The translations under genes were made by a program, and so were the position numbers. Source: an uncultured Gammaproteobacteria bacterium (lineage in GTDB: Bacteria > Patescibacteriota > Patescibacteriia > Magasanikbacterales > GCA-002688135). Taken from it: 64,000 nucleotides of DNA. The notes under the pieces are model-generated. The model was not told the origin of the DNA and made no database searches. It worked only from the letters and a program-made list of their open reading frames with translations. Shown here one piece after another: positions 2,405-57,535 of this stretch (its first letter is position 1; each line of letters starts with the position of its first letter). Location: assembly GCA_964536205.1 (NCBI GenBank), contig CAZHVT010000002.1, forward strand, positions 1,982-65,981, read 5' to 3'.

Positions 2405-3295
2405 ATGCCATTTACGATTTTGCCATTCATATTAATTCTAGCTGGTGCAGTTATTGCATCCGTAATTTTGATTCGCAAATTCCCACAAATTGCATTACTC
2501 GATGTAGACAAATTACCGCAAGAAGTTCAATCACAAAAGAAAAAAGCAATTATTGAAGAGCAATATAAACGATCAATGAAAAAAACTGCAGAGAAGTTGA
2601 AAAAGTGGTCTGGGCCAATGCATACATTTTGGACAAAAACACAAAAGAAGTTTCGTGATCGTGTGCAAAAAACATATGTGCAATACGCAAAGTCTCGTGC
2701 AAAGAAACCAAAAAAATCAGAAAAAGCTCCACCACCAGAAGCGATCGCTGCATTGTTGAAAGATGCACAAACACAATTATTGATGGAGAATTACAAAGAG
2801 GCCGAGCAAAAATATATTGAGGTGATTCGTTTTGCGCCACGAACAGTTGAGGCATATCGTGGATTAGGAAGATTATACTTTGCAAAAAAACAATGGGATG
2901 AAGCGCGCGAAACATATTTGTTTATTGTGAAATTGGATGAGAAAGATGGTCGTGCTCACAATCGATTGGGAATGATTGCGGTTGAAACAGAAGATTGGAA
3001 AACAGCAGTCGCACATTTCAAACGCGCTGTTGAAATCGATAACAAAATTGCTCTGCGACATTACGATCTCGCTCATGCCTATGACAAAATGGGAAAACAG
3101 TTATATGCATTACGTTCATATGAGCGCGCAGTTTCACTCGAACCGCTCAATCCAAAATATCTTGACGCTTATTTGAAAACGGCTATACTACTCAAAAATA
3201 AAGAACTTGCACAAGCAGCATACGATCAATTAAAGATAGCAAACCCAGAAAATAAAAAGCTCGATCAGCTGCGCAGAACAATAGAAGAGTTGTGA
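2405..3295 (+). CDS. TPR-repeat protein with N-terminal transmembrane helix
   Basis: N-terminal hydrophobic segment, a Lys-rich linker, then repeated A/Y/L tetratricopeptide-like units (AYRGLGRLYFAKKQWDEA...). Confidence 0.5.
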   Translation: MPFTILPFILILAGAVIASVILIRKFPQIALLDVDKLPQEVQSQKKKAIIEEQYKRSMKKTAEKLKKWSGPMHTFWTKTQKKFRDRVQKTYVQYAKSRAKKPKKSEKAPPPEAIAALLKDAQTQLLMENYKEAEQKYIEVIRFAPRTVEAYRGLGRLYFAKKQWDEARETYLFIVKLDEKDGRAHNRLGMIAVETEDWKTAVAHFKRAVEIDNKIALRHYDLAHAYDKMGKQLYALRSYERAVSLEPLNPKYLDAYLKTAILLKNKELAQAAYDQLKIANPENKKLDQLRRTIEEL

Positions 3296-3296
3296 G

Positions 3297-3380
3297 GTTG
3301 TACGTTATACGTTCTACGATGTACGAATTTTATTAATCGCTTCGCGATTTTCGTGTGACGTAGAACGTATAACGTACAAC
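3297..3380. repeat. Perfect 22-bp inverted repeat (GTTGTACGTTATACGTTCTACG / CGTAGAACGTATAACGTACAAC) around a 40-nt core holding the palindrome AATCGCTTCGCGATT
   Basis: Read directly. The arms are built of TACGTT(A/C)-type heptamers. The same core palindrome recurs at 48815-48830. Confidence 0.6.
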
Positions 3381-3388
3381 GTTAATGT

Positions 3389-3462
3389 GCCAACGTAGCT
3401 CAGTTGGTTAGAGCGCATCCATGGTAAGGATGAGGTCAGCGGTTCAACTCCGCTCGTTGGCT
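3389..3462 (+). tRNA. tRNA-Thr (anticodon GGU)
   Basis: Manual cloverleaf: acceptor GCCAACG/CGTTGGC, D-arm GCTC..GAGC, anticodon loop ATGGTAA, T-loop TTCAACT. CCA is encoded at 3463-3465. Confidence 0.85.
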
Positions 3463-3580
3463 CCAGAACACCTTTTGGGTGTTTTTTGTTATACACAGTT
3501 TTCCACATTGTGTGTGGATGTATGTGTGGTAAAATGCGTCCTTAAGCAAATACTTAAACATTAATAAGTATCTCTATTAT

Positions 3581-4366
3581 ATGAATGACTATCATCAGAG
3601 TCAGCAGCCAAAGCGTGATAAAGATCTTTTCGATAAGATCGGATCAAAAAACTCTTTCTTTTTTGGATTGAGTTCAGGTGTCGCAGGATTTTTTGTGATC
3701 GGATTTTTTGTCCTTCTCGGAGTCTATATGACTGGCGGAGGAGGCGGAGGGGGTCGCACAGTTCAGGCAAACAAAAATCCAAGCGTAAATCCAACTCCAA
3801 CACAGCCAGCAAATCCTGGAGCAGGAGCGCCTGTCGATGTACAATTATCAGAAGATGACTGGGTGCGCGGAGATGAAAATGCAAAAATCTCCATTGTAGA
3901 ATTTTCAGATTATGATTGCCCATTCTGCTCACGTCATCACGAAACAATGAAGCAGATTCTTGATGAATATCCAGGAGATGTAAATTGGGTATATCGACAC
4001 TTCCCATTAGAACAATTGCATCCATTTGCAAAGAAAAAGTCAGAAGCAGCTGAATGTGTAGGGTCACTCGCAGGAGCAGATGCATTCTGGAAATTCACAG
4101 ATGCAATTTTTGAGGGTGATGAGGGCGGAACAGACGCAGAACTTGCAGCACTTGCAGCACAAGCAGGAGCAAATCAATCAAAATTCCAAACATGCTTAAC
4201 CAATGGAGATTTTACAGATGTTGTGGAAAATGACACGCAAAACGCACTTGCGGCCGGCGGATCAGGAACTCCATACAACGTAATCATTGCAGGGGATCAA
4301 ACAATCCCGGTAAATGGCGCAGTTCCATTCGAGCAGTTTAAGAGTATTATTGATTCACTGTTGTAG
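3581..4366 (+). CDS. DsbA/thioredoxin-fold thiol:disulfide oxidoreductase, membrane anchored
   Basis: N-terminal TM helix, a Gly-rich linker, and a CPFC active-site motif in a thioredoxin-like context (YDCPFCSRHH). Confidence 0.6.
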   Translation: MNDYHQSQQPKRDKDLFDKIGSKNSFFFGLSSGVAGFFVIGFFVLLGVYMTGGGGGGGRTVQANKNPSVNPTPTQPANPGAGAPVDVQLSEDDWVRGDENAKISIVEFSDYDCPFCSRHHETMKQILDEYPGDVNWVYRHFPLEQLHPFAKKKSEAAECVGSLAGADAFWKFTDAIFEGDEGGTDAELAALAAQAGANQSKFQTCLTNGDFTDVVENDTQNALAAGGSGTPYNVIIAGDQTIPVNGAVPFEQFKSIIDSLL

Positions 4367-4478
4367 AGGAAAGAAGCAAGAAGTAAGAATAAAGATGAGC
4401 CTCCAGTGGAGGCTCTTTTGTTTATTGACACTTTCGCAGTTGAAGATTATACTATTGGCACAATTGAATACAGTTCAT

Positions 4479-4560
4479 GGGTCGGTACCAAAGTGGTCAA
4501 CTGGGGCAGGCTGTAAACCTGCTGGCTTCGCCTTCGGGGGTTCGAACCCTCCCCGGCCCA
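4479..4560 (+). tRNA. tRNA-Tyr (anticodon GUA), class II with long variable arm
   Basis: Acceptor GGGTCGG/CCGGCCC, anticodon stem GCAGG/CCTGC with loop CTGTAAA, T-arm GGGGG-TTCGAAC-CCTCC. No CCA is encoded. Confidence 0.85.
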
Positions 4561-4574
4561 TACGAAATAGCCAT

Positions 4575-4592
4575 CCACTCGGGTGGTTTTTT
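4575..4592 (+). terminator. intrinsic terminator (CCACTCGGGTGG + T6)
   Basis: Hairpin followed by a T-run immediately after tRNA-Tyr. Confidence 0.5.
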
Positions 4593-4707
4593 CATACTTA
4601 ATTCTCACCCCCTCTTTCGGGCGTAGCCCTCGTACCTCGGGCCATCTCACTCGCTTCATTCGGATATGCAAAGCTATCGCTTTTCACATCACTCATTCCG
4701 CTCGCTC

Positions 4708-4728
4708 GTCCGAACCCTCCCCGGCCCA
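4708..4728 (+). repeat. Direct repeat of the 3-prime 21 nt of tRNA-Tyr (GTCCGAACCCTCCCCGGCCCA vs GTTCGAACCCTCCCCGGCCCA)
   Basis: 20 of 21 identity to 4540-4560. No complete tRNA can be folded around the second copy. Confidence 0.6.
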
Positions 4729-4772
4729 AATAAAAACCTCGTCTTGTGATGGACTTTTTATTTGGGTTTTTT
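4725..4772 (+). terminator. intrinsic terminator (CCCAAATAAAAA ... TTTTTATTTGGG + T6)
   Basis: 12-bp inverted repeat followed by a T-run. Confidence 0.5.
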
Positions 4773-4782
4773 GTTTGAGAGG

Positions 4783-4811
4783 TTGACAGGGTAATCAAAA
4801 AGACCTAGTAT
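4783..4811 (+). promoter_or_regulatory. sigma70-like promoter TTGACA-N17-TAGTAT for the VIT-vWA gene
   Basis: Consensus -35 and 17-nt spacing, about 45 nt upstream of the ATG. RBS AAAAGGAG. Confidence 0.45.
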
Positions 4812-4853
4812 ACAAACGGTTAATTCACAACAACAGAGCAAAAGGAGTGAGAA

Positions 4854-7208
4854 ATGACACAATCAGCTCTCGCAAGACGAATACAAGAACAAGTCGGACT
4901 GGCGATCGAACATCTGCCGCTACGATCAATGCATTTCGATGCAGAGGTTCGTGGGTTGCATGTTGGTGTACGTGTTACACAGACATTCAAAAACACACTC
5001 GACAATCCTGTGGAGGCGATTTACGTTTTTCCAATGGTTCCACAAGCTGCTGTGCTTGGTGCAAAACTGAAGATTGGAGACAAAACGATCGAATCAGAAT
5101 TGCGTAAGCGCGAAGATGCGCAAAAAGCATATGCTGAAGCTCGTGATGCTGGTCATCATGCGGCGATGGTAGGGCAGGAGCGTCCTAACATTTTCACTAT
5201 GTCTGTTGCAGGTGTTGAGCCTGGCGAGCAGATCAGTGTGGATATTCATTACATCGCGCCGGTCGACTGGCAAGATGGTGGTGGGCGCTTGCAGATTCCG
5301 CTTGTGGTTGCGCCGCACTTTGTGCCGGGGCATGCGACTGGAAAAACCGGTGGGGGATTTTCTATGGATACCGATGAGGTTCCTGATGCATCTCGCATTA
5401 CACCCAAATCGGTTCCAGAGGTGAGTTACAGCGCATCGCTTAAGTTGTCGCTGACTCCAGGATTCGAGGCTAAACTTGGATCTCCATCTCACAGCGCATT
5501 AGTTGTGTGTGACGTTGAACAGATTTGTGAAGGCGACACACGAATCATCGAACTCAACGATCTGCGTTGCGATCGCGATATCGTCATCACATACAAAACA
5601 CAAGATGAGCAGCCGACAATCGCGGTCGAGCGTCAGTCATTCATCACCACAAACGGCGAGACGGATGAACTTACGCTTCTGCAGATCTCCGCTGGATGCA
5701 TCGAAAATGAATCAGAACATCCTCTGGATGTCGCGCTTCTGCTCGACACATCCGGAAGTATGAGAGGTCAGAAAATTAACGGGTTGAAGAAGGTGGCAAA
5801 AAAGCTGCTTACTCGTTTAAGTACATTCAGTCGTCCAGTCCGAGTAACTATTCATCGATTCGCAAATTATTGTGAAGAGTTGTCTAAGTTAGCAGAGGTT
5901 GATGACTCACACTTTGATGTTATCGATCAGCTGGATGCCAGGGGTGGCACAAACGCAGGTCGTGCGATCACGGCAGTGATGGATGTCTTCAGGAGAGAAA
6001 ATAAGTATCATGAAAAATGCATTGTGTTGGTCTGCGATGGGCAGACGGATGACAGGCATTTCAAGGGTCTGGAGGGAGTTCGTATTCATTCTGTCGGAAT
6101 TGATAATGCGATTGACAACGCGACTCTCAAAGAATTTTCTGACATAACTGGAGGATCGTGCGAATGGATTCTGCCAGGCGAGGATTATGATGCAGCAGCT
6201 GCGCGAGTGGCTGGTATGGCATCTGGCCCTGTGCTGCGTGATCTGCAAATCCGTGGCTTGCCCGATAAGGCAAAAGTCGTGAATCTTGGTGATTGCTATC
6301 ATGCACAACCTCGCACGATCGGAATTCTCACTGCAGAGCCTATCGAAGGATGTGTTGTAGTTGGATGTGGTCCGGATGACACGCTATACGAGCGAGCAGT
6401 CCGTGTACCAAAAGAGACAACGACAACTCTCGTAGGTCCGCTATTTGGCAAGATGTTGCTGAACGAGCTTCAGGATCAATCTGTCAAAACTGAAACATCA
6501 CTTCGTTATGGCGTTCTGTGCAGTTCAACTGCGCTCATCGCTGTAAGTAAGAAAGATGTTCCGGGCGCAAAACCGGAAACCATCGACATTCCAGTTCTCA
6601 TGCCACATGGGTGGGAGTATGACGATCGTAGTGAGTTCGCGGTTCGTCGAATGTCAGTTGGTGTTGGTGGTCCAGCTCGCAGACGTAGAATTAGAAGATT
6701 GAGTGCTCAAGGCATTACGAGAAGAGCTATTGCGGGAGATGTTTTGAGCAAAGTATCCTATAGGACAGAAAATGCTGGCCCTCCGCGTCATGCAACCATG
6801 CAAGGCGCAAAGGAAGTCGATACTATCGATTACTCCGATATGTTGGGTGGCGGTTTGCTGGAAGATTCGGCAGGGATTTCAGCTGATGCGGATTCGAAGA
6901 AAGAAAAAGGAACTGCTGGATATTTCATCGAGCAAGCACTAATTCTTCTCAACGCGCTAGAGAATCGTCCGACATCAAAGCCTCTTCATGCACTCCATCA
7001 AGAACTCAAGATGCTAATTGCAGATTCTACGAAGTTCGCTCAATGGAGTGGTGAAGAGAAATCCCAACTCCTTCTGCTGATCGCGCAAATCGGACATGCG
7101 AATCCAGCCTATGCAATCAAGCCCAACGAGGTGTTGTTGCAAGAGCCAGCCGGACAATTCGCTCGACTCCATTGGATGCAGGCCAAGAAAATTCTCGGTC
7201 TCGCATAA
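4854..7208 (+). CDS. VIT (vault/inter-alpha-trypsin) domain + von Willebrand factor A domain protein
   Basis: N-terminal VIT-like region (EAIYVFPMVPQAAVLGAKLKIGDKTIESEL...). vWA MIDAS motif DVALLLDTSGSMRGQK. GC clearly higher than flanking genes. Confidence 0.75.
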   Translation: MTQSALARRIQEQVGLAIEHLPLRSMHFDAEVRGLHVGVRVTQTFKNTLDNPVEAIYVFPMVPQAAVLGAKLKIGDKTIESELRKREDAQKAYAEARDAGHHAAMVGQERPNIFTMSVAGVEPGEQISVDIHYIAPVDWQDGGGRLQIPLVVAPHFVPGHATGKTGGGFSMDTDEVPDASRITPKSVPEVSYSASLKLSLTPGFEAKLGSPSHSALVVCDVEQICEGDTRIIELNDLRCDRDIVITYKTQDEQPTIAVERQSFITTNGETDELTLLQISAGCIENESEHPLDVALLLDTSGSMRGQKINGLKKVAKKLLTRLSTFSRPVRVTIHRFANYCEELSKLAEVDDSHFDVIDQLDARGGTNAGRAITAVMDVFRRENKYHEKCIVLVCDGQTDDRHFKGLEGVRIHSVGIDNAIDNATLKEFSDITGGSCEWILPGEDYDAAAARVAGMASGPVLRDLQIRGLPDKAKVVNLGDCYHAQPRTIGILTAEPIEGCVVVGCGPDDTLYERAVRVPKETTTTLVGPLFGKMLLNELQDQSVKTETSLRYGVLCSSTALIAVSKKDVPGAKPETIDIPVLMPHGWEYDDRSEFAVRRMSVGVGGPARRRRIRRLSAQGITRRAIAGDVLSKVSYRTENAGPPRHATMQGAKEVDTIDYSDMLGGGLLEDSAGISADADSKKEKGTAGYFIEQALILLNALENRPTSKPLHALHQELKMLIADSTKFAQWSGEEKSQLLLLIAQIGHANPAYAIKPNEVLLQEPAGQFARLHWMQAKKILGLA

Positions 7209-10071: not shown

Positions 10072-10893
10072 ATGGGTACTCGAAATCCTCAGTTCGATTC
10101 ATACGACACGATTCACGCTACCATGACAGTGTTGCGGAAAGCAGGTTTGTTCACTGATGGTCTGGATGCGATCCTTCGTAAAAAAGGTAATGCCAAGCGA
10201 GGAGTCGACGCTCTCATGCGCGAGTTCAAGCTCGATGGAGTCAACGAGTTCACACTCGATCTCGAAACGCAACTCGAGCGATTCGCAGAAGCACTCCCAA
10301 AGCTTCGACAGATCGGCTTCACCTTCATGGACAAGTCAGATGAAGAGGTGCTGCGAGAGCTCCGTGAAACAGCACCTGCCTGGCCCGAAGGTAAACGATG
10401 CTTTCGCTTCGTCCAAATCCGCGAGGGTGAGGGTGGCGAAGGTGTGCAAAAGACCTTCGATCTCCATAAGCAAATGATGTCACAAACATTCACACCCAAG
10501 TGGCGGCGCGGGGATCATATCAAAACAGATAAGGATCATCTGCGCCTACTCGCTGGCAACGAAACACACAAGACCTGCTTCGGCTGGGTCTGTGCGGACA
10601 TGGACTCCAACAGGCAGCGCAATTCCATCATTGCAGTGCGTGGAGATAGCTCTCTCGCCGACGAGATTTTGGCCTTCAACTGGCAGTTCCCCGCGTACTG
10701 CAAAGCGATCGATTATAAGGAGAATCCTGGCCTGTTCGCTGCGGGTTACGAGCTTTCAGTCGATGGCTGCGAGGACTGGAGCCATATGCCGCTCATGGGC
10801 CGCGATCTGGACACCGACGAGGTCGACCTGCTCGCCCACCACCGTAGCATCGACAACTCTGTCTACTCTGTGCCGTCTCGTCTCAGGGAGTAA
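10072..10893 (+). CDS. hypothetical protein (GC-rich, no recognisable motif)
   Basis: 273-aa ORF with strong RBS, promoter and terminator. Composition near 50 percent GC against about 35 percent for the backbone. Confidence 0.5.
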   Translation: MGTRNPQFDSYDTIHATMTVLRKAGLFTDGLDAILRKKGNAKRGVDALMREFKLDGVNEFTLDLETQLERFAEALPKLRQIGFTFMDKSDEEVLRELRETAPAWPEGKRCFRFVQIREGEGGEGVQKTFDLHKQMMSQTFTPKWRRGDHIKTDKDHLRLLAGNETHKTCFGWVCADMDSNRQRNSIIAVRGDSSLADEILAFNWQFPAYCKAIDYKENPGLFAAGYELSVDGCEDWSHMPLMGRDLDTDEVDLLAHHRSIDNSVYSVPSRLRE

Positions 10894-11862: not shown

Positions 11863-11969
11863 AGTAAGGCACTGTTTTTCTGGAAAAGTTAGAACTTCAT
11901 CAACTAGTCCCTTAAAAAAATACTGATCCATATCGGTATTTTTTAGTATGAAAATCAAATAAAATAGTA

Positions 11970-11998
11970 TTGACATGATGCATTTCTCGTGCTAGCAT
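11970..11998 (+). promoter_or_regulatory. sigma70-like promoter TTGACA-N17-TAGCAT, followed by a 9-bp perfect inverted repeat (12007-12025) that contains the mini-ORF MKIIFI
   Basis: Read directly. GAGGAG-N5-ATGAAGATCATCTTCATCTAG lies between the promoter and the RBS of the AAA+ gene. Confidence 0.5.
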
Positions 11999-12059
11999 GA
12001 GGAGTTGATGAAGATCATCTTCATCTAGCTAGTTCATTACAAAAGTACAAGGAGAATCA

Positions 12060-13538
12060 ATGCGTAAAACAATGGAATATGTCGATATTGTCGGCAAGCG
12101 ACATGAAGTAAGGTGGAGCGAGTTATTGGAGGCAATTGAGCGCGTTCGTGCTTTGTTCTCTTCCGTGAAAAGGCGTTTTGTTGAAAGAGAGTCGGTCATT
12201 GATCAAATCAAACATGCCATGCTGTTGCGTGAGCATATTTTGATCAACGGACCATCTGGCGCAGCGAAGTCAATGTTGATTCGAGCGATTACCAAGGCGA
12301 TTACCAATGCTCGATTGTGGTCAATGGACTTGACTCGTTTTACGACAAACAGTCAGGTGTTTGGTGGATACGATGCTCGTCAGCTTCGTGAAACGGGACA
12401 CTCTATTCATTTGACCGAGTTTTCAGCCGCCGATGCACACTTCATTCAATTGGGTGAATTTTTCGATGCGCCTCCGCCAACACTACGAACGCTTCTCGGG
12501 TTGCTCAACGAGCGACGCATTAGAAATGGTCCGCAGTTGATCGAGCCGCCGCTGTTGACGGCGATTGGCGATACAAACTTCTCAATGGAAATGCTGACCG
12601 AAAAAAGTCAGCAGCAGCTGGCCGCAGTAGTGGATCGCTTCCTGTTCAGGGAAGAGGTTGATTATGTGGTCGAGCCAGCAAATCGACGTCAGATGCTCGC
12701 GATGAGTTTGGATCCCCGGGTCCAAGACAAACTTCCACAAGTATCACTCGATGATATTGTGATGATTTCTGGAGTCGTGAAAGGAATGAATCTGATGCTC
12801 GATCCGTACATCATCGATGCATATGAGGAGATGACTCGTCGGTACAGCGCATTGCGTCAAGAGAAAGGCGGCTTGAGAGTTTCAGATCGGCGCTATGTAC
12901 GCGGTGCACAGATCATGGAAGTTTCCGCGTTATTGCATGGTCGACAGGCGGTTACATTTGAGGATTTGGCGATTACGCGCTATGTGCTCGCTCACAATGA
13001 AAATGATGTTGATATGCTCATCGAGATCAAGAAGGGTGTTATTGGCACATGGGTAAAACGCGCATCTCGTCGTGAAATTGAATCTGAACTACATCGTCTC
13101 GCACAGGTCATAAAAGATCTACCAAAGAGTGATAACGTTGATATTGAATCCATGAAGCTGGATGAACTGAAGGCATTTGCATCTCAATTAGAAAAGATGC
13201 AAAGCTCGCTTCAAGAATTCAAAACAGATTCGCTTGAGGTGGGGCAAAAAGTTGCCGAGTGGACACGGGCGATTCTAGCTTTGCAACATCAAGCCGTGCA
13301 TCACGGAATTTCACTCATCGAACAGATGATTCCAGAGACGACAACGAACATGAGTGCTGAAACTGTGGGACCGGTTGGAAAGCAGGTGAATATAGCGCTG
13401 AATGAGTTGCGTAGTGTTCCAACACTAAGTGATGACTTAATTGTTCGTCAGTCTGAAGTGATGGTAAAGGCGTTGCAAGCTCGACATAATGTAGATTCTT
13501 CGATGGAGAATCTCGGTGTTGTGAGTAAGGAGGGCTAG
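12060..13538 (+). CDS. MoxR-like AAA+ ATPase with C-terminal coiled-coil extension
   Basis: Walker A ILINGPSGAAKS, MoxR-type LLTAIGDTN (the ATQNP-equivalent) and sensor region RVSDRRYVRGAQIMEVSALLHGRQAVTFEDL. The translated sequence is GC-richer than the backbone. Confidence 0.65.
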   Translation: MRKTMEYVDIVGKRHEVRWSELLEAIERVRALFSSVKRRFVERESVIDQIKHAMLLREHILINGPSGAAKSMLIRAITKAITNARLWSMDLTRFTTNSQVFGGYDARQLRETGHSIHLTEFSAADAHFIQLGEFFDAPPPTLRTLLGLLNERRIRNGPQLIEPPLLTAIGDTNFSMEMLTEKSQQQLAAVVDRFLFREEVDYVVEPANRRQMLAMSLDPRVQDKLPQVSLDDIVMISGVVKGMNLMLDPYIIDAYEEMTRRYSALRQEKGGLRVSDRRYVRGAQIMEVSALLHGRQAVTFEDLAITRYVLAHNENDVDMLIEIKKGVIGTWVKRASRREIESELHRLAQVIKDLPKSDNVDIESMKLDELKAFASQLEKMQSSLQEFKTDSLEVGQKVAEWTRAILALQHQAVHHGISLIEQMIPETTTNMSAETVGPVGKQVNIALNELRSVPTLSDDLIVRQSEVMVKALQARHNVDSSMENLGVVSKEG

Positions 13539-14570
13539 ATGGATCCTATTACGTTTTGGTTGTTAATGTCTGGCTTAGGAGGAGCTGGAGCTGCAGGAGC
13601 GGCTCTGTTGTATCGGTTGATGAAAGGTCCGAGACTACCTGAATTACCTCCAATGCCAGAACCAAAACCACCGGAAATTCCTGTAAGACAGGATGGTATT
13701 ATCGATGCAGAGGAGCTAGAAGAAGAGGAGGATGACTCTTTATTGAGCGACAAGGATGTCGTGAAGCAGATTGTTGGTGGCATAGGTTTTTCCGCGCAGT
13801 ACGTGCAGGTTGGCGAGCGAGTTGTCGGACAACGTTTTCTCGGTTATCGAGAAGAAGAATCTATATATCCTGATGACGACATGACAGTTCGACCAATACG
13901 AGATGTAGCTGAGATGGCTTCATTATTGGGCAGCGAGAATGCGCAAGATGATGATATATTGTACGCACGCATTGCACGTGGGGAAGCACTCGTTACAGCT
14001 TACACAACACAAGAAGAAGTGTTTGAAGATGTACACGAGCCAGTTATGGAAGCTCGGCGCAGAACACTGTATATTCTCCTTGATCTTTCGCCATCCATGT
14101 TTCCAAAACACTCTCGTTGGAGATGGAAGATTTGGGGACCGCTTGTGCTGATGCTTCTACAAAAAGCATTTCAAAATCAAGTTGTGTTTTTGATGAGGTA
14201 TTTTGGCGGAACGGTTTCAAAGTTGATGCGCGCCGTATCACAAGAAGAAGTTGCGAAACTTGAGCGATCTATCAGAAGTGCACAATGGATCTCCTCAACA
14301 GATATAACTGCTGCGGTATACACGGCACTACGGGATTTTGATGATGAAGAATACGACAATGCACAAGTTGTATTGATCACAGACGGGGAGCACAATCAGG
14401 GGACATTCAATCCATCGAAAGTGCGTAAGGCTTTTGATGATCGTAATGTCACATTACATGCGATCTTGCTCGGCGTTAAGAATGACGGATTGAGACAAGC
14501 TGCGCACAGTTACGTGCAAGTTGATCATCATGATCGCAGGGGATTATTTACCATAATCAATCAAGTATAA
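13539..14570 (+). CDS. membrane-anchored von Willebrand factor A domain protein, partner of the MoxR-like ATPase
   Basis: N-terminal TM helix plus Pro-rich linker. MIDAS motif LYILLDLSPSMF with downstream vWA-like beta-alpha pattern (VVLITDGEHNQG). Start abuts the stop of 12060-13538. Confidence 0.65.
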   Translation: MDPITFWLLMSGLGGAGAAGAALLYRLMKGPRLPELPPMPEPKPPEIPVRQDGIIDAEELEEEEDDSLLSDKDVVKQIVGGIGFSAQYVQVGERVVGQRFLGYREEESIYPDDDMTVRPIRDVAEMASLLGSENAQDDDILYARIARGEALVTAYTTQEEVFEDVHEPVMEARRRTLYILLDLSPSMFPKHSRWRWKIWGPLVLMLLQKAFQNQVVFLMRYFGGTVSKLMRAVSQEEVAKLERSIRSAQWISSTDITAAVYTALRDFDDEEYDNAQVVLITDGEHNQGTFNPSKVRKAFDDRNVTLHAILLGVKNDGLRQAAHSYVQVDHHDRRGLFTIINQV

Positions 14571-14579
14571 TATGGGGTA

Positions 14580-15074
14580 GTGGAAACTGCCTCTTTTTTA
14601 TTCGAAAAATATTCAAAAAAAATTCATACTAATTTTGGAATGGACACAATTATGATAGAGTGTAGTCATATGAAAAACATACACAACGCAATTCGAATTA
14701 TCACCGGTCTATTTTTTGTAGCGATTTTCTTTTCCAAATTTGGATTTTTGCCATCGGCTGCGCATTCTCCAGAAATGTTTTCCGCAACAGGATGGGTTTT
14801 TATTTCTGCGATAAATGAAATTGGATATTTATTTCCAGTGATCGGACTCATATCGCTGGCTTCCGGTGTCGCATTTCTTGCTAATCGTTATGTTGCACTG
14901 GCTGCGTTATTGATGTTGCCACTCACCGTAAACTTCGCACTGTTTCATATTTTCGTCGGGCTTCCGATGGAAACACATTTCCTCCGCGAGTCAGCTGGAT
15001 TTATCCCTCTCGCTTTGAATGTCTACATGATCTACAGCCAACGCAAAAAATATAAAGAACTACTCAAACCATAA
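14580..15074 (+). CDS. hypothetical polytopic membrane protein
   Basis: Four predicted TM segments. No motif recognised. Confidence 0.4.
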   Translation: METASFLFEKYSKKIHTNFGMDTIMIECSHMKNIHNAIRIITGLFFVAIFFSKFGFLPSAAHSPEMFSATGWVFISAINEIGYLFPVIGLISLASGVAFLANRYVALAALLMLPLTVNFALFHIFVGLPMETHFLRESAGFIPLALNVYMIYSQRKKYKELLKP

Positions 15075-15106: not shown

Positions 15107-15976
15107 CTAGGAAAGTTTGACCTCTTTCCATTTGTCGCTGTCAGAATCACGCTTGTACAATCGAATGTACGAGCTTGTTTTTTCACTGCGCAGGCTGCGA
15201 CTCAAAAGGTGTTGCGCCTGCTTGAGTTCGGGGAAAACATCGGCATCAATGCTGATCGAAAGGAATCGATACAGATCCGGGCCGACTTTGAACGAAACAC
15301 GCTCGACGAGAATGTTTTCAAGAATCTCGATCAGAGCACGAGCTCTATCGTCTTCTTCATCCTGTCGCGTTTTGGCAAATCGATCAAAGAACTTGTTGAT
15401 TTGCTCTCTGGCTTCGTGAGCCAAAGTTGTATCGATGCGCGAGATATGGTTCACCAGCGCGACAACGCGACGCAAACCATCTGTACTCGTGAGTGAAATC
15501 TGTGATCGAAGTGATCCATCTTCATTGGTCAGCATGTCATAGACATTCGCTGTCAGAAACTCGTTTCGTGCGCGGAATGCTTCTACAACTTGATCATTGA
15601 GAGCAAACACTTGCGTCACGATATCATCCGTTCGACGATCAACATTCTCAAGTCGCGCAATGAGTACAGCGAGTTCAGTTCGCTGCTTCTGCAATTCAGC
15701 TTCTGATGCAGTGATATCTGCCCGGGCTGCATCACGTTCTTTCGTAAGTTCAACTGTCTCAGTTGACCAAGAATTAATAATATCTTTCAACCGTTGTGCA
15801 CGTTGCGTCGCGGTATTTTTCAGTCCAGCGAGTGATGCAGCAGCACCCAAGAACCGCTGGTATTTCTTAGTCCATTTCGCACGAGACTTTGCCTCTTTGT
15901 TGCGTAATCTCTCAAGAGATTTTTCAGTTGCGGCAATCGCGCGCTCCAACTGCTTTCGCATTTTTGCTGGCGTCAT
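15107..15976 (-). CDS. hypothetical coiled-coil protein
   Basis: 289-aa ORF, highly charged with heptad-like E/K/R/L pattern. No enzymatic motif. Confidence 0.45.
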   Translation of the reverse strand: MTPAKMRKQLERAIAATEKSLERLRNKEAKSRAKWTKKYQRFLGAAASLAGLKNTATQRAQRLKDIINSWSTETVELTKERDAARADITASEAELQKQRTELAVLIARLENVDRRTDDIVTQVFALNDQVVEAFRARNEFLTANVYDMLTNEDGSLRSQISLTSTDGLRRVVALVNHISRIDTTLAHEAREQINKFFDRFAKTRQDEEDDRARALIEILENILVERVSFKVGPDLYRFLSISIDADVFPELKQAQHLLSRSLRSEKTSSYIRLYKRDSDSDKWKEVKLS

Positions 15977-16316: not shown

Positions 16317-18812
16317 ATGGCAATAGCAAATCGAATCCCAATGCCATCTCATGAGGGGAGAAAAGAAGATGGTGAGCACAGATCGCGTGAGGCACAAGGA
16401 GCGCCAGTTGAAAGATTTCGACAAATCGTAAAATTATCTCCGAAGGTGTATGAGGAGTTAGTTGTGATTGAAAACGAAGTTGAATTGCCAAGCGAAATAA
16501 ATGAAGAGGATTGGGAGGGCGTGGATTTTTATGAATACATGGAGACAGTTCGAGTTGAAGAAGAGATGACGGAAATTGAACACAAAATTTTTACAACATA
16601 TGCATTAGAAGAAGTTGAGAGAATTACAGAATTATTGGCTGATGATTATGAAGAGGAGTTGATTGATGAATTAGAAGCAAGATATGGAGTTCCAAAAGAG
16701 GAAATCATGCATATACTTCTGGAGGAAAAAGGATTGTTGGGAGATAATGATGCGACATACATTGTTGTTGAAGCTGTAAAAGCTCGATTGCAAAATCGGG
16801 TAGAAGAGCGTCAAGGAAGAGAGAAAATGCCTACTGCTCAGGAGAGAGCTGAATTAGATGAATTGCGTGAAATTAATAAACAGATGAAGGAGGAGCAAAA
16901 AGAGAGGGAGCAAGATCACCGACGAGAACAAACACTCAGTATGATCGATGATCTATTTGAAAGTTTGCCAGAAAGAATCAGAGAAGAAGATCAGGTGCAA
17001 TTCGAGTCGCTGGAAAAAGTTTATAGCGATACATTGCAAGAAGGAATAAAAGATGACGAAGCACAGGAAAATCAAGACAGATTATTTACAGAAATTCTTG
17101 TCGAATTAAGGAGGATGGAAGAGTTGGCAGCACAAGAGAGGGGTGAGGAGGCAGAATATCAACCACCAATTTCCGATAGAGATCCTGGTTATGTTCGTCA
17201 GATCATAAATCGCATAGCTGATTCACGAGCAGGTAGATATCTTGCGGTTGGGATTGAGGGATTAAAATTGGTATATGGGGCAGCAGCAATAGGTCAAGAA
17301 GCGCATGGTATGGCATTTGGATCAGATGAGATAGTCGAAGTATCAACAAGAGGTGGTGATCTAACAGATAAAATAACTTCCGGATCTGGAAGAGCGGTTA
17401 CAGTTAAGGGCGCACCTGCAATTGCAGCACATGATGCCCAGCGTAGAGGCACAGAAACTTATGAGGATAGGGTTGAGATCACACCACAAGCTCCAAAGTC
17501 AGAAACAATATATGGTGAGCAAGAAGTAAGTCATGCAACATTGCATTTCGATACCATGCCAATGTCACCAGATTTTAAAGTTAAGGGCCATGAGAAATTT
17601 ATTGATGCAGGTCCGCTCATTGAATATATTCGCGGACAAATAGAAGGAAGAGAGGATTTAGAAGGACAGAAAATTGACATTCAATTAGAAGGACGCGCTT
17701 CAATTGATGCGCGAAGATGGGCGTATGAAAAAAATGAGAAGTTGGCAGGAAAGCGAGCTGAAATGGCAAAATTGCAAATTGAACAATTACTTGCAAAAGC
17801 ATTTCCGGGAGTTGAGATTAATATTACAATTGCTGATGGCGCGGCAACAGTTGAGTTGGATGGACAGAAATTGACTCATGAGCAAGCAAGGGAGCAAATG
17901 AAACTATTATTGGGCGTAACATCTGAAAAAGATTTACAAAAGAAATTGCGGCAGTTTAGAGCGGGGGATATGACAGGATTTGATGCCGCACAAATTGCAG
18001 CAATGGAGCAGGTTGTCACAAATGCACGTGGTGTGTTAATGGATATTACATTCACGGGGCAATCAGTAGTTGAATCTGAAAGAAGTGTGCCTCAGCCAGA
18101 CGAAGTGAAGGTTGTGAGAACAATGACAGATGGAGCGCAGCGAAGAGGAAGAAGAGATGGAGAGCCAACTCCAGACCTACCCCCAACACCACCAGAGCAA
18201 GGTCAGGCTCCAGCAGAAATTTTAACAGGTCATCGCATGGATCCCGTCATTAAAGAAGAATTTGATGATACAAAAGCTCCAGAAACAGAAATGACACAAG
18301 AACCTGTGCCTGGCGATAATCCAGATACATACATTAGAGAAAATCAGCAGGATATTCACGAGATAACAAATCAATTAGAACGGACAAGATATATACGTCG
18401 TGCGAGAAGAAAGATTGATGATGTTGTGGATCCACCACCCCCACCGCCACCTCCACCGCCTCCACCACCAGAACCAGAATACAGGAGAGCCCAAGGACAA
18501 CAATCCGTAGAACTCGGGCCAATGAAAACAGAACGAGTTAATTTACGCACACAGGGAGTGGATGAGAGGGATGAAATACAATTTTCCGGTTCTGTAAATC
18601 AGGATTCAGGAATGGGAACATCCAGCAGAAGAAGGGAAAAGCAGATTAGATACGACGAATTTGGAGATGTCATTCCTCCAGATAAAGAACAGCCAATAGC
18701 TCGTGTACAAAGAGAAAAGGGTAGGGATCGCCAAGCTTCAGAAAAACAAAAAGCACGAGAACTGCGCCGAGCACGCCGACAAAGACGACGAGAAGAGAGA
18801 GGAGAAAATTAG
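16317..18812 (+). CDS. large (831 aa) highly acidic, Glu-rich low-complexity protein with a poly-proline tract and an Arg-rich C-terminus
   Basis: Uninterrupted ORF. A run of 13 consecutive Pro codons at about 18426-18470. No catalytic motif recognised. Confidence 0.55.
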   Translation: MAIANRIPMPSHEGRKEDGEHRSREAQGAPVERFRQIVKLSPKVYEELVVIENEVELPSEINEEDWEGVDFYEYMETVRVEEEMTEIEHKIFTTYALEEVERITELLADDYEEELIDELEARYGVPKEEIMHILLEEKGLLGDNDATYIVVEAVKARLQNRVEERQGREKMPTAQERAELDELREINKQMKEEQKEREQDHRREQTLSMIDDLFESLPERIREEDQVQFESLEKVYSDTLQEGIKDDEAQENQDRLFTEILVELRRMEELAAQERGEEAEYQPPISDRDPGYVRQIINRIADSRAGRYLAVGIEGLKLVYGAAAIGQEAHGMAFGSDEIVEVSTRGGDLTDKITSGSGRAVTVKGAPAIAAHDAQRRGTETYEDRVEITPQAPKSETIYGEQEVSHATLHFDTMPMSPDFKVKGHEKFIDAGPLIEYIRGQIEGREDLEGQKIDIQLEGRASIDARRWAYEKNEKLAGKRAEMAKLQIEQLLAKAFPGVEINITIADGAATVELDGQKLTHEQAREQMKLLLGVTSEKDLQKKLRQFRAGDMTGFDAAQIAAMEQVVTNARGVLMDITFTGQSVVESERSVPQPDEVKVVRTMTDGAQRRGRRDGEPTPDLPPTPPEQGQAPAEILTGHRMDPVIKEEFDDTKAPETEMTQEPVPGDNPDTYIRENQQDIHEITNQLERTRYIRRARRKIDDVVDPPPPPPPPPPPPPEPEYRRAQGQQSVELGPMKTERVNLRTQGVDERDEIQFSGSVNQDSGMGTSSRRREKQIRYDEFGDVIPPDKEQPIARVQREKGRDRQASEKQKARELRRARRQRRREERGEN

Positions 18813-20545: not shown

Positions 20546-21604
20546 ATGATGTACAAACCATCAACCTACACCATCGAGAGTGTAACATCCGGACATCCGG
20601 ATAAAGTATGCGATCAGATTTCTGACGCAATTTTAGATGCATGTTTAGCACAAGATCCTTACAGTCGAGTTGCAGTCGAAACATTCGGCTCGCACGGGCT
20701 ATTAGTGTTGGGAGGAGAAGTATCAACATCCGCAATTGTAGATTACAAAACAATTGCAAAAAAAGTGTACAAAGAAATCGGATATGATGATGAACTGGAA
20801 ATCATCTGCCGTATAGTCGAGCAATCAAATGATATCGCACAGGGAGTAGACACAGGCGGCGCAGGCGATCAGGGAATTATGTATGGATATGCGACAAACG
20901 AAACAAGTCAGTTGCTTCCAAGTGCATTAGTGAAAGTTCATCAACTTACAGAAGGTTTAGAAAAGTTGCGCAAAATTGAAGCGTGTCCATGGCTTGGTCC
21001 GGATGGAAAAGCTCAAATCACCGTTGAAAATAATGTCATCACAAAAGTTCTCGTAAGCACGCAACATGATAAAGACGTATCGCAAGAACAAATCCATCGA
21101 GAATTAACAGAAAAATTAATTCACCCGATTGTGGGAGAAGTCGATGAAATTCTCATCAATCCAACAGGAATTTTCATTCAAGGAGGGTTTGAAGCAGACG
21201 CAGGATTAACGGGCAGAAAAATAATGGTCGATACATATGGCGGATTAGCTCCGCACGGCGGCGGAGCATTCTCCGGAAAAGATGCTACAAAAGTAGATCG
21301 ATCCGCAGCATATATGGCACGCTACGTCGCTAAACAATTAGTACATCGAGGATTAGGAAAAGAAGTTTTAGTTTCTGTTGCTTATGCTATCGGAAAAGTA
21401 GAGCCACTGATGGTGCAGGCTTACAATGAAAAAGGTGCGTCTTTAGATGTATCAGAATTCGATTTCAGGCCAGCGGCAATTATAGAAAATCTCGGACTCC
21501 GAAATCCAATATTCAGACAAACCGCATGCTACGGACACTTCGGGAAAAATGAATTGCCCTGGGAACATGTCGTACAGAAAAAGGTGTTGACGAAAGTTGC
21601 ATAA
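20546..21604 (+). CDS. metK: S-adenosylmethionine synthetase
   Basis: N-terminal GHPDKVCDQISDAILDA and the GGGAFSGKDATKVDRSAAYMARY signature. Confidence 0.85.
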   Translation: MMYKPSTYTIESVTSGHPDKVCDQISDAILDACLAQDPYSRVAVETFGSHGLLVLGGEVSTSAIVDYKTIAKKVYKEIGYDDELEIICRIVEQSNDIAQGVDTGGAGDQGIMYGYATNETSQLLPSALVKVHQLTEGLEKLRKIEACPWLGPDGKAQITVENNVITKVLVSTQHDKDVSQEQIHRELTEKLIHPIVGEVDEILINPTGIFIQGGFEADAGLTGRKIMVDTYGGLAPHGGGAFSGKDATKVDRSAAYMARYVAKQLVHRGLGKEVLVSVAYAIGKVEPLMVQAYNEKGASLDVSEFDFRPAAIIENLGLRNPIFRQTACYGHFGKNELPWEHVVQKKVLTKVA

Positions 21605-27496: not shown

Positions 27497-27506
27497 ATCC
27501 ATCACG

Positions 27507-32978: not shown

Positions 32979-33007
32979 TCATCAATGTGTCATGCGAGCT
33001 AGAGATT

Positions 33008-33073
33008 GTCATCCCGGCGTAGGCCGGGATCCACGTCTCTAGAAGCATGGATCCCGGCCTTCGCCGGGATGAC
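33008..33073. repeat. 70-bp-class palindromic repeat, copy A (GTCATCCCGGCGTAGGCCGGGATCCA-N14-TGGATCCCGGCCTTCGCCGGGATGAC)
   Basis: Read directly. Each arm contains an inner CCCGGC/GCCGGG hairpin. Confidence 0.7.
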
Positions 33074-33081
33074 ATTAAAAT

Positions 33082-44802: not shown

Positions 44803-44810
44803 TACAAGTT

Positions 44811-44877
44811 GTCATCCCGGCGCAGGCCGGGATCCATCTTGATAAAAGGTATGGATCCCGGCCTGCGCCGGGATGAC
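44811..44877. repeat. palindromic repeat copy C (GTCATCCCGGCGCAGGCCGGGATCCA-N15-TGGATCCCGGCCTGCGCCGGGATGAC), perfect
   Basis: Read directly. Sits between the lipoprotein gene and dnaJ. Confidence 0.75.
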
Positions 44878-44888
44878 AATAAGAATAT

Positions 44889-57463: not shown

Positions 57464-57532
57464 CCCGGCGCAGGCCGGGATCCATTGTCCGGATCATTAC
57501 AACGCATGGATCCCGGCCTGCGCCGGGATGAC
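57459..57532. repeat. palindromic repeat copy E (GTCATCCCGGCGCAGGCCGGGATCCA-N22-TGGATCCCGGCCTGCGCCGGGATGAC), perfect arms
   Basis: Read directly. Sits between murJ and the GT2 gene on the minus strand. Confidence 0.75.
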
Positions 57533-57535
57533 AAG

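Follow-up and report, generated by a model that had tools for sequence, protein, structure and literature searches.

Positions 11970-14600 of the window (the whole 64-kb stretch of DNA analyzed) probably constitute a self-contained two-gene operon that encodes a distant version of the RavA-ViaA (MoxR AAA+/vWA) pair, tethered to the membrane. While the RavA-ViaA chaperone pair is itself well known, the pair reported here is an uncharacterized variant. Gene 1 encodes a MoxR-class AAA+ ATPase whose closest characterized relative is Escherichia coli RavA. Gene 2 encodes a ViaA-like partner in which a single transmembrane (TM) helix plus a flexible linker takes the place of the N-terminal part. Translation of the two genes is coupled, they are inherited together as a strict pair, and the sequence provides them with a predicted promoter and a predicted terminator of their own (Table 1).

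Table 1. Features of the two-gene operon and its surroundings, in window coordinates
Feature	Position	Strand	Basis or remark
Inverted repeat AAAAAATACTGAT-ccat-ATCGGTATTTTTT	11915-11944	.	Inverted-repeat search and sequence
Putative sigma-70-type promoter, TTGACA-17 nt-TAGCAT, with TG extended -10	11970-11998	+	Promoter matching
Perfect 9-1-9 palindrome GATGAAGATCATCTTCATC (GATGAAGAT-C-ATCTTCATC)	12007-12025	+	Sequence, folding
Mini-ORF MKIIFI and TAG (ATG AAG ATC ATC TTC ATC TAG)	12008-12028	+	ATG inside the palindrome stem
Shine-Dalgarno AGGAG, ATPase gene	12050-12054	+	5 nt before ATG
RavA-like MoxR AAA+ ATPase, 492 aa	12060-13538	+	Pfam, PDB sequences, hhalign, AF2, Foldseek
Walker A GPSGAAKS, residues 64-71	12249-12272	+	Aligns to RavA GPPGIAKS
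Variant Walker B FIQLGEFFD, residues 128-136	12441-12467	+	Three independent alignments concordant
Sensor-1 D171-T172-N173 (within AIGDTN, 168-173)	12570-12578	+	N173 is the sensor-1 asparagine
R193 in VVDRFLF, putative arginine finger	12636-12638	+	Invariant; aligns to RavA R170
R277-R278 in SDRRY (within VSDRRYVRG, 274-282), sensor-2 region	12888-12893	+	Aligns to RavA SDRRW / R251 region
C-terminal helical extension, residues 314-485	12999-13514	+	Five long helices (AF2 secondary structure)
Shine-Dalgarno AAGGAGGG, partner gene	13527-13534	+	Within 3' end of ATPase gene
ViaA-like partner, 343 aa	13539-14570	+	TM anchor, linker, ViaA-type middle domain, vWA domain
N-terminal TM helix, residues ~5-25, TFWLLMSGLGGAGAAGAALLY and K/R-rich flank	13551-13613	+	Hydropathy, AF2
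Proline-rich then acidic low-complexity linker, residues 29-68	13623-13742	+	AF2 coil, pLDDT 53-74
Conserved middle domain, residues 70-172	13746-14054	+	hhalign, AF2 pLDDT 86-98
vWA domain, residues 175-340	14061-14558	+	Family profile, Foldseek
MIDAS D182-x-S184-x-S186; T254; D282	14082-14096; 14298-14300; 14382-14384	+	Complete
Intrinsic-terminator-like hairpin GGGGTAGTGGAAACTGCCTC then TTTTTTATTC	14574-14600	+	Operon end

Operon organization and distribution

The promoter, which we regard as strong, is the top-scoring candidate between 11500 and 15200, with 10 of 12 positions matched; its -10 hexamer lies at 11993-11998, and transcription is expected to start at about 12004-12007. Similar promoters precede the homologous loci, where the -10 element ends 44-62 nt 5' of the start codon. 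Upstream, between a 64-aa ORF and the promoter, the inverted repeat looks like a bidirectional terminator that would insulate the operon. At the gene junction, the ATPase stop codon TAG (13536-13538) directly adjoins the partner ATG (13539); together with a partner Shine-Dalgarno (SD) sequence located inside gene 1, this indicates translational coupling. The two genes likewise abut or overlap in homologous loci L004 and L005.

The pair recurs as a strict two-gene module in approximately 35 unrelated metagenomic and metagenome-assembled genome (MAG) loci, from Patescibacteria, Gammaproteobacteria MAGs and others. The partner is directly downstream of the ATPase wherever downstream DNA is available (30/30 loci), and when all ORFs of 35 non-redundant loci were clustered, the two genes formed the only conserved families. 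Flanking genes differ from locus to locus. An additional downstream gene of 235-246 aa, without a Pfam match, occurs in 4 loci only, and no respiratory-complex (Frd, Nuo) or LdcI genes are conserved near the pair. The original prediction had proposed a search for a third, VMAP-like gene; across the 35 loci, there is neither a conserved third component (VMAP, iSTAND, FtsH, beta-propeller) nor an effector domain. It had also called the pair GC-rich relative to the host, a hint of foreign origin that the composition does not support: GC contents of 47.1% and 45.1% (gene mean, 42.4 +/- 4.0%) place the two genes 8th and 10th among 53, the partner GC3 equals the mean, and the excess is marginal.

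The ATPase and its membrane-anchored partner

The MoxR assignment of gene 1 agrees with the original prediction, whose first refuting condition, an ATPase falling outside MoxR, is not borne out. Pfam returned PF20030 (118 bits; cut-off 27), AAA_5 (E 1.3e-16) and AAA_lid_8 (E 3.9e-10), with no match to AAA_3. Among proteins of solved structure, RavA is the closest in sequence (E 5e-35 against PDB sequences), and hhalign aligns the protein to E. coli RavA at E 1.1e-23, with the match stopping at RavA residue 297. Similarly, a Foldseek search with the AF2 model (pLDDT 88) placed RavA structures 4upb, 3nbx and 6q7l on top, followed by MoxR CHU_0153 and then MCM. The ATPase is not, however, a RavA orthologue, because it scores 104 bits on the NCBIfam RavA model, far under the equivalog cut-off of 681. 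Nor does it match LARA_dom (PF20265) or ATPase_RavA_C (PF12592), on which E. coli RavA itself scores 135 and 83 bits.

An N-terminal beta-hairpin specific to the family (residues 5-17) precedes the AAA+ core and lid (~28-312), which are followed by the previously noted C-terminal extension. This extension is confined to a "long" clade, where it stands in for the triple-helix, LARA and C-terminal regions of RavA; full-length ATPase homologues of the short clade have 409-441 aa. In the AF2 model, an insert at ~89-127 and two strands (154-156 and 159-161) that separate the Walker B helix from the sensor-1 strand correspond to the helix-2 insert and pre-sensor-1 beta-hairpin of AAA+ clade 7 architecture. 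Both ORFs lie at the coordinates given in the original prediction, and that of the ATPase contains GPSGAAKS and AIGDTN, which it named, as well as VSDRRYVRG. In Walker A, G64, G67 and K70 do not vary across 20 homologues, and N173, R193 and R277/R278, all invariant or almost so, match the sensor-1 asparagine, R170 and the R251 region of RavA. RavA R170 is discussed in PMC6987120, and we compare it with R193 as an arginine finger.

The Walker B motif is atypical. Rather than the canonical hhhhDE, the ATPase has a glycine, G132, at the position of the Walker B aspartate, which is D114 in RavA (PMC6987120). The catalytic glutamate, E133, is kept, and G132, E133 and D136 are invariant in the 20 homologues. 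Members with this GE motif form a monophyletic clade, while members of the sister clade read DE. The substitution is accompanied by an aspartate two residues before sensor 1, D171, that is restricted to the Gly members: position 171 is D in all 15 GE rows that cover it (three of these rows are near-duplicates of another row, and two further GE rows are truncated) and S, C, T or A in 18/18 DE members. Loss of the Walker B aspartate may leave ATP hydrolysis poor or absent, and the presence of G132 throughout the clade would fit an ATPase that serves not as a motor but as a nucleotide-binding switch or scaffold deficient in hydrolysis. We consider this improbable, as the catalytic glutamate, sensor-1 asparagine, arginine finger and sensor-2 arginine are invariant, under purifying selection, and an invariant D171 arising on the neighboring strand exactly in the Gly members resembles compensation rather than decay. 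We hypothesize that the glycine together with the new aspartate on the sensor-1 strand reflects a relocated Mg2+-coordinating carboxylate.

Gene 2 was originally described as a membrane-anchored vWA protein, and hydropathy, invariant residues and the structural comparisons agree. Its ORF contains a hydrophobic N-terminus, PRLPELPPMPEPKPPEIP and the MIDAS motif DLSPSM (182-187). The Kyte-Doolittle mean exceeds 1.6 over 19 residues in 40/49 family members; the window protein itself, at 1.53, is just below this cut-off, and AF2 places a low-confidence helix at residues 3-28. No family member has K or R before the TM helix, and most have 3-7 such residues within the 12 that follow it. The predicted topology is N-out, C-in, with the middle domain and the MIDAS-bearing vWA domain predicted to face the cytoplasm. 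Between membrane and middle domain, the charged and proline-rich linker is predicted to be disordered, and it varies in length and composition among homologues.

The middle domain comprises approximately 100 residues, with two strands of about 20 residues each (88-107 and 151-172) and an invariant P111. By homology it corresponds to ViaA ~219-319, in the C-terminal part of NTV, the region that binds RavA. Overall, hhalign matches the partner to E. coli ViaA 219-472 (E 1.5e-9), extending past the N-terminal boundary of the vWA domain by about 100 residues; the first ~218 residues of ViaA, in NTV, lack a counterpart, their position being taken by the TM helix and linker. NTV alone is enough to bind RavA (PMC9489729). 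Because the single-sequence Pfam vWA scores of the window protein (21 bits) are under the gathering thresholds, the vWA assignment rests on the family profile, which matches PDB vWA domains at E 2.8e-12, and on the AF2 model (pLDDT 89), which has a vWA fold and matches vWA domains in Foldseek, including NorD in NorQD complexes. The five MIDAS residues (D182, S184, S186, T254 and D282) are the same in all 49 homologues.

The leader palindrome and its mini-ORF

The leader was originally described as carrying a perfect palindrome enclosing the codons of a mini-ORF, and the palindrome is there. It is not a random occurrence: perfect inverted repeats whose arms measure 9 nt or more and whose loops do not exceed 5 nt number 10 in the window, this one included, compared with 1.1 in composition-matched shuffles. 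It is also unique, with no second copy within 3 mismatches in the 64 kb. Starting ~8 nt past the -10 hexamer, it occupies the extreme 5' end of the predicted transcript. The folding proposed as a check on the original prediction yields an 8-bp stem capped by a 3-nt loop, which can be lengthened to 12004-12030 at -11.6 kcal/mol, and leaves the SD of the ATPase gene unpaired.

The mini-ORF is most likely a by-product of this hairpin-forming palindrome and not a coding element. The start codon ATG, the stop codon TAG and an AGGAG ahead of them are all present, and it was on these that an RBS-preceded reading frame and a regulatory leader peptide were proposed, such that the six-residue MKIIFI would be translated and its translation, or ribosome stalling, would control the downstream genes. 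We give this almost no weight. Only 3 nt separate the AGGAG (12000-12004) from the ATG, compared with 5 nt in the real gene; because it is only 2-6 nt past the -10 hexamer, the AGGAG probably precedes or coincides with the transcription start and so escapes transcription. The stem sequesters the ATG, no terminator/anti-terminator alternative follows the mini-ORF, the real SD is already unpaired, and a palindrome containing CAT/ATG automatically yields an ATG and in-frame codons. Furthermore, an SD-preceded mini-ORF is absent from the leaders of at least 30 homologous loci. Neither palindrome nor uORF is conserved there, which is the second refuting condition set in the original prediction; the homologous leaders have no sequence in common beyond the true SD, and Rfam contains no match for the leader.

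What does recur, shortly past the -10 element, is a stable stem-loop, generic in form and unrelated in sequence. Among the closest relatives, its stem is 10 bp in L042, 9 bp with a G.U pair in L040, and 6 bp in L043 and L039; the G.U pair favors RNA rather than DNA symmetry. Folds of the MoxR-operon leaders are also more stable than those of controls taken from the same contigs (median -9.5 vs -6.6 kcal/mol; one-sided Mann-Whitney p = 0.005), in a comparison for which the control set is crude and some hairpins are terminators of upstream genes (L014 and L035). We tentatively regard the stem-loop, with confidence a little short of even, as an RNA-level feature and not a leader peptide; it could, for example, be a 5'-terminal stabilizer like the hairpins known for ompA and Bacillus mRNAs.

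The same symmetry could act in DNA. A palindrome over +1 has the classic position of a repressor operator, and a perfect 19-bp dyad beginning 8 nt past the -10 element could be bound by a dimeric repressor encoded elsewhere, possibly a metalloregulator, that blocks the operon at its transcription start. Its 9-1-9 geometry is that of a Fur box, with 14/19 consensus positions matched, and in L007 and L008 a promoter-spacer palindrome keeps its symmetry through a compensatory change, which is DNA-level behavior. MoxR-vWA pairs, moreover, often serve metal insertion (PMC13036017). We nevertheless judge an operator possible but unlikely: Fur-box matches of this quality are at chance level (2 sites in the window vs 1.95 in shuffles), the palindrome lacks a second copy, no locus has a regulator gene adjoining the operon, and the homologous leaders carry unrelated stem-loops, including the one with the G.U pair. 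That the palindrome has no function at all seems quite unlikely.

Relation to known MoxR-vWA systems and possible mode of action

RavA-ViaA is the nearest known system. It shares with the pair the ATPase-then-vWA gene order with overlapping or abutting genes, a homologous AAA+ core and lid, RavA as top structural match, and homology of the partner to the end of NTV and the MIDAS-bearing vWA domain of ViaA. We also count as a likeness that RavA-ViaA acts at the cytoplasmic face of the membrane (PMC9489729). Identity is only ~25-29%. The ATPase has a different, five-helix extension instead of LARA and the RavA C-terminal domain, and GE instead of DE in Walker B; the partner is truly TM-anchored, in contrast to ViaA, a soluble protein with peripheral lipid binding.

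NorQ-NorD, CbbQ-CbbO and Rea1/Midasin likewise combine a MoxR-class ATPase with a MIDAS vWA adaptor. NorD chains match the partner over 267-285 columns at an rmsd of ~15 Å, so that only the domain folds correspond. The vWA finger of NorD inserts in the NorQ pore, where ATP turnover rotates it (PMC13036017). The partner model features a long beta-ribbon beside the vWA domain that could have a finger-like role; its long strands, however, precede the vWA domain, whereas the NorD finger is an insertion within it. NorQ also belongs to the CGN subfamily rather than being RavA-like, and the pair has no metalloenzyme client gene nearby.

BatA and BatB also join a membrane anchor to a vWA domain and are encoded alongside a MoxR ATPase, and the partner profile has the BatB vWA domain among its best matches in PDB sequences (E 4.7e-12). 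Bat operons combine a MoxR ATPase of the MRP subfamily (AAA_3) with a DUF58 protein and several further genes. Unlike the Bat aerotolerance operon, the pair has a RavA-like ATPase without an AAA_3 match and no conserved DUF58 or other gene; only the idea of a TM helix plus a vWA domain is common to both.

Related pairs are also present in jumbo phages, namely gp66/gp63 of Bacillus phage 0305phi8-36 and CDS0115/0114 of Moorella phage MTATph1 (phrog_19600). The phage ATPases are 27-28% identical to the ATPase, which scores 157 bits on phrog_19600, and the phage partners are homologous over the middle and vWA domains (hhalign E 2.7e-13 and 3.2e-9). At 493-553 aa, with matches starting from residues 269-277, the phage partners have a long N-terminal region in contrast to the TM helix and linker here. 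These relatives, the variable flanking genes and the PF20030 score would agree with a role as the core of an anti-invader system, as the Pfam name bpMoxR hints. MoxR-vWA-centric ternary conflict systems were reportedly described by Kaur, Burroughs, Iyer and Aravind in 2020, and the bpMoxR model derives from that work. Although the pair shares their MoxR-vWA core and matches PF20030 above threshold, we find membership highly improbable. E. coli RavA scores higher on the same model (191 bits), so the match is not diagnostic; the third component and effector domain are missing from the 35 loci, and PADLOC returned zero matches. IMG/VR viral contigs yielded no member of the family, and phage and plasmid records contain only relatives of at most 33% identity.

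Finally, RavA-ViaA and NorQ-NorD suggest how the pair may work. No neighboring gene is conserved that could point to a client; we infer client, oligomeric state and ATPase activity of the family by analogy. An ATPase hexamer would dock on the middle/vWA module of the partner, and the MIDAS site would grip a membrane-associated client by an acidic residue. Driven by ATP, the adaptor would then move and remodel this client, for example in the assembly of a membrane complex or the loading of a cofactor.

Organization of the operon and identity of its two genes

The ATPase and partner genes form an operon bounded on both sides by terminator-like elements (see table), and re-reading the sequence confirmed the coordinates and motifs of the original prediction for both genes and for the leader palindrome. 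The ATPase stop codon, TAG, directly adjoins the partner ATG and the Shine-Dalgarno sequence of the partner is embedded in the ATPase gene, a sequence arrangement that indicates translational coupling of the two.

Features of the operon, of the surrounding window and of homologous loci (locus handles beginning with L denote separate contigs with their own numbering)
Feature	Position	Strand	Remarks
Terminator-like inverted repeat	11915-11944		Upstream boundary of operon
Sigma-70-type promoter TTGACA-17-TAGCAT with TG extension	11970-11998		Best such match in region
Perfect palindrome GATGAAGAT-C-ATCTTCATC	12007-12025		Encloses ATG AAG ATC ATC TTC ATC, then TAG
ATPase ORF	12060-13538		492 aa; GPSGAAKS, AIGDTN, VSDRRYVRG
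Partner Shine-Dalgarno AAGGAGGG	13527-13534		Within ATPase gene
Partner ORF	13539-14570		343 aa; N-terminus MDPITFWLLMSGLGGAGAAGAALLY, then proline-rich stretch; DLSPSM
Terminator-like hairpin and T-run	14574-14600		Downstream boundary of operon
DUF3164/phrog_846 coiled-coil protein	15107-15976	-	289 aa; DUF3164 28.9 bits, above cut-off; converges on downstream side of operon
VIT+vWA protein	4854-7208		784 aa
vWA protein	24018-25262		414 aa
GC-outlier gene	10072-10893		54.0% GC
GC-outlier gene	26165-27496		57.6% GC
ORF antisense to 26165-27496	26264-27505		413 aa
Highly charged protein	16317-18812	+	831 aa; 13-proline run
SAM riboswitch RF00162	20405-20504	+	67 bits
S-adenosylmethionine synthetase gene	20546-21604		Directly 3' of riboswitch
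Intergenic repeat, three copies	33007-33074, 44809-44879, 57457-57534		TTGTCATCCCGGCGCAGGCCGGGATCCAT and inverse
Extra small gene, L010	8296-9036		3' of vWA partner
Extra small gene, L016	8315-9022		3' of vWA partner
Extra small gene, L032	5203-5901		3' of vWA partner
Extra small gene, L036	2194-2431		3' of vWA partner
Promoter-spacer palindrome, L007	about 5760-5773		14 bp
Promoter-spacer palindrome, L008	about 5778-5791		14 bp
Phage pair, Moorella MTATph1 (L045)	3489-6067		RavA-like ATPase and ViaA-like vWA protein
Phage pair, Bacillus 0305phi8-36 (L046)	3270-6692		RavA-like ATPase and ViaA-like vWA protein

The identification as a MoxR-vWA pair is borne out by Pfam, by profile and structure matches to RavA and by a family-level vWA profile. 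The ATPase matches Pfam PF20030 “bpMoxR” (118 bits), AAA_5 and AAA_lid_8, and scores 104 bits on the NCBIfam RavA model, far under its equivalog cut-off. With a profile of 20 ATPase homologues, the best solved relative is E. coli RavA (E 5e-35), followed by Cytophaga MoxR 2r44, and hhalign aligns the protein with RavA from the K-12 genome across RavA residues 8-297 (E 1.1e-23). Structure matches to its AlphaFold2 model (pLDDT 88) ranked RavA, 2r44 and MCM proteins in that order, as expected for a clade-7 AAA+ protein. The PF20030 model was built for “ternary conflict systems” (PMC7159879); since it also gives E. coli RavA 191 bits, its name is uninformative on membership in such systems. By Pfam, the LARA and C-terminal domains of RavA are absent. 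In their place, the model has five long helices (residues 314-485), an extension limited to the “long” clade of the family; short-clade relatives span 409-441 aa where their alignment rows are full-length.

For the partner, the vWA assignment is solid at the family level. The window protein alone falls slightly under the Pfam vWA thresholds; the profile of 22 family sequences matches the vWA domains of CLCA1 and BatB (E about 1e-12), the MIDAS residues D182, S184, S186, T254 and D282 are invariant in 49 homologues, and the AlphaFold2 model (pLDDT 89) adopts a vWA fold matching many solved domains, including NorD of the NorQ-NorD complexes. The vWA domain is preceded by a middle domain of ~100 residues, predicted with high confidence, that has two strands of ~20 residues each. 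By hhalign, the two domains together are homologous to residues 219-472 of E. coli ViaA (E 1.5e-9), to the protein beside the MoxR-like ATPase of Moorella phage MTATph1 (E 2.7e-13) and to gp63 of Bacillus phage 0305phi8-36 (E 3.2e-9). Both are jumbo phages that encode RavA-like ATPase and ViaA-like vWA pairs. RavA binding is a function of the ViaA N-terminal region (PMC9489729), so by analogy the segment common to the partner and ViaA is likely an ATPase-docking module.

A hydrophobic 19-mer (Kyte-Doolittle mean >1.6) occupies the N-terminus in 40 of the 49 partner family members. No member has Lys or Arg ahead of it and most have 3-7 such residues in the 12 that follow, a pattern that points to a signal anchor of N-out, C-in topology and to a cytoplasmic location of the vWA domain. 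A predicted disordered linker, proline-rich and charged, connects the anchor to the remaining protein.

The Walker B motif and the sensor-1 strand

Three independent alignments place G132-E133 of the ATPase opposite D114-E115 of RavA, in which the nucleotide is contacted by D114 as Walker B residue (PMC6987120). The ATPase homologues show no variation in the Walker A motif, the catalytic Glu, sensor-1 N173, the Arg finger R193 or the sensor-2 arginines. Every family member with this Gly-Glu motif has an Asp two residues ahead of the sensor-1 Asn (D-T-N) in the 15 rows that cover the position, a number that counts three rows nearly identical to another; the other two Gly-Glu rows end before it. 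At the position of D171, all 18 canonical Asp-Glu members have Ser, Cys, Thr or Ala, and RavA and more distant relatives likewise combine Asp-Glu with Ala or Thr. Since the Gly-Glu/Asp members form one clade in the neighbor-joining tree, the pattern reflects a single coupled change that has since been retained rather than repeated covariation.

Because the AAA+ fold sets the sensor-1 strand between those of the P-loop and Walker B, it is plausible that the Mg2+-coordinating carboxylate has been relocated in the Gly-Glu clade. The broader proposal is an undescribed RavA-like clade in which the carboxylate moved from Walker B (Asp to Gly at 132) to the sensor-1 strand (Asp 171) and whose ViaA partner is N-terminally truncated and anchored by a single pass. 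We offer this combination tentatively and consider it rather unlikely as a whole.

The leader palindrome and the proposed upstream ORF

The palindrome upstream of the ATPase gene had been described as enclosing a six-codon, RBS-preceded ORF (MKIIFI), and the leader as a regulatory device, whether operator, leader peptide or both. With the -10 hexamer ending at 11998, transcription is expected to start around 12004-12007; the AGGAG at 12000-12004, which had been taken as the ribosome-binding site of the mini-ORF, therefore lies ahead of or at the predicted start, and it stands 3 nt from the mini-ORF ATG versus a spacer of 5 nt for the real gene. In the predicted leader fold, that ATG is within the stem and the real Shine-Dalgarno sequence is unpaired. 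None of the homologous loci has a Shine-Dalgarno-preceded mini-ORF in the leader, and neither palindrome nor ORF is conserved among these unrelated leader sequences; over the stretch between the -10 and the start codon, the true Shine-Dalgarno sequence is the only element common to their alignment. A regulatory peptide is thus unsupported. The leader result mainly clears a false lead, and the “uORF” should not be propagated as such.

What the palindrome does instead may be better judged from its position. Good promoters recur in the homologous loci, with 44-62 nt from the end of the -10 to the start codon, and the closest relatives place a sequence-unrelated stem-loop right after the promoter: a perfect 10-bp stem in L042, one of 9 bp that needs a G.U pair in L040, 7 bp in L009, and 6 bp in L043, L039 and L004. 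Median local folding energy is also lower in 31 MoxR leaders, a few of whose hairpins are upstream-gene terminators, than in 121 other leaders of the same contigs (-9.5 vs -6.6 kcal/mol; one-sided Mann-Whitney p = 0.005). On these grounds we take the palindrome as a 5'-proximal RNA stem-loop, a reading to which we give slightly less than even weight; its role would most simply be that of an mRNA stabilizer. Folding of the leader revealed no alternative structure or terminator after the stem, and Rfam scans, of the whole window at gathering thresholds and of the leader at E <= 10, placed no RNA family in the leader. The palindrome is non-random insofar as the window has ten times as many perfect inverted repeats of this size as its shuffles (10 vs 1.1); several of the others are at terminator-like sites.

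The main rival, that the palindrome is a repressor operator, is in our view somewhat less likely. It draws on the perfect dyad spanning +1 and on two related Obscuribacterales-type loci, L007 and L008, in which the promoter spacer has a 14-bp palindrome 109-96 nt ahead of the MoxR start codon. Two changes between these loci (CAGTGCTAGCACTG vs CAGTGTTAACACTG) leave this palindrome symmetrical, which for that family branch is suggestive of a DNA operator. Against this, the window has no second copy of the palindrome within 3 mismatches, and its 14/19 match to the 19-bp Fur consensus is at the chance rate for the window and is no evidence for a Fur/PerR/Zur box. The RNA stem-loop remains the reading that we prefer.

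Strict pairing, genomic context and significance

About 20 relatives of the ATPase at 35-54% identity were found, all metagenomic. A word-indexed protein search with the partner returned essentially the query only; an exhaustive search of 1.84 billion cluster representatives, used instead, gave 256 at E <= 1e-3. Scanning contigs from genomes and metagenomes yielded 35 non-redundant loci, and the partner is directly downstream of the ATPase in every locus with downstream sequence. All-against-all ORF clustering of the 35 loci found no other conserved gene family around the pair, including the third, VMAP-like gene that had been suggested; the remaining clusters are shadow ORFs on the strand opposite the ATPase gene. 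An extra small gene (235-246 aa, no Pfam match) follows the partner in four loci only and may represent a lineage-specific third component. Among the named hosts are Patescibacteria (Collierbacteria, Uhrbacteria, Saccharibacteria, Parcubacteria), Gammaproteobacteria MAGs, Obscuribacterales and Altiarchaeales. Three other contigs carrying the locus are base-for-base identical to the window over 13.5 kb.

The window is ordinary bacterial chromosome (dnaK, recJ, uvrB, metK, pgi, tRNAs). A mobile-element origin was rejected: no member of the family was found in IMG/VR viral contigs, the relatives in phage and plasmid records do not exceed 33% identity, and the GC content is not an outlier. The pair had been described as GC-rich relative to its host, which proved weak; at 47.1% and 45.1% versus 42.4 +/- 4.0% over 53 genes, the ATPase and partner genes rank 8th and 10th. 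Two genes at 54-58% (GC3 about 62-63%), neither with a Pfam match, are the real outliers, and one is shadowed by an antisense ORF. No PADLOC match reached the reporting threshold. The sole phage-flavored item nearby is the DUF3164/phrog_846 gene, of a family known from Mu-like phages; it is not conserved with the pair.

Other features of the window are listed in the table. Neither of the two further vWA proteins adjoins an AAA+ gene, the 831-aa charged protein has no Pfam, NCBIfam, PADLOC or PHROG match, and the intergenic repeat is long and palindromic and resembles a family of REP- or MITE-like elements.

Overall, the pair is an uncharacterized, membrane-anchored, LARA-less branch of the RavA/ViaA type with an unusual Walker B arrangement. 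Relative to RavA-ViaA, the membrane link is hard-wired by the transmembrane anchor of the partner, the adaptor is reduced to the ViaA segment common to the phage and enterobacterial homologues, and the LdcI-binding LARA domain of RavA has been dropped. What the analysis shows is the domain content, the relationship to RavA and ViaA, the strict pairing, the operon structure and the predicted topology. By analogy with RavA-ViaA (PMC9489729) and NorQ-NorD (PMC13036017), a hexameric ATPase would dock on the middle/vWA module, the MIDAS site would hold on to an acidic residue in a client on the cytoplasmic side of the membrane, and ATP turnover would shift the adaptor and so remodel the client.

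Most occurrences of the clade are in uncultivated lineages, genome-reduced Patescibacteria among them, and some of these may be without the respiratory complexes that RavA-ViaA serves. If the proposed clade is real, it would imply a membrane client different from that of RavA-ViaA and a non-canonical active-site geometry for clade-7 AAA+ proteins; the coupled Walker B Gly and sensor-strand Asp allow active-site rewiring of an AAA+ ATPase to be put to the test. Few AAA+ chaperone systems are as widespread as MoxR-vWA pairs, or as poorly understood, and for RavA-ViaA there is still debate on the true client and on what its association with the membrane means. Being transmembrane-anchored, stripped-down and LARA-less, the pair described here could serve as a minimal model for the role of the conserved RavA-ViaA core at the membrane.
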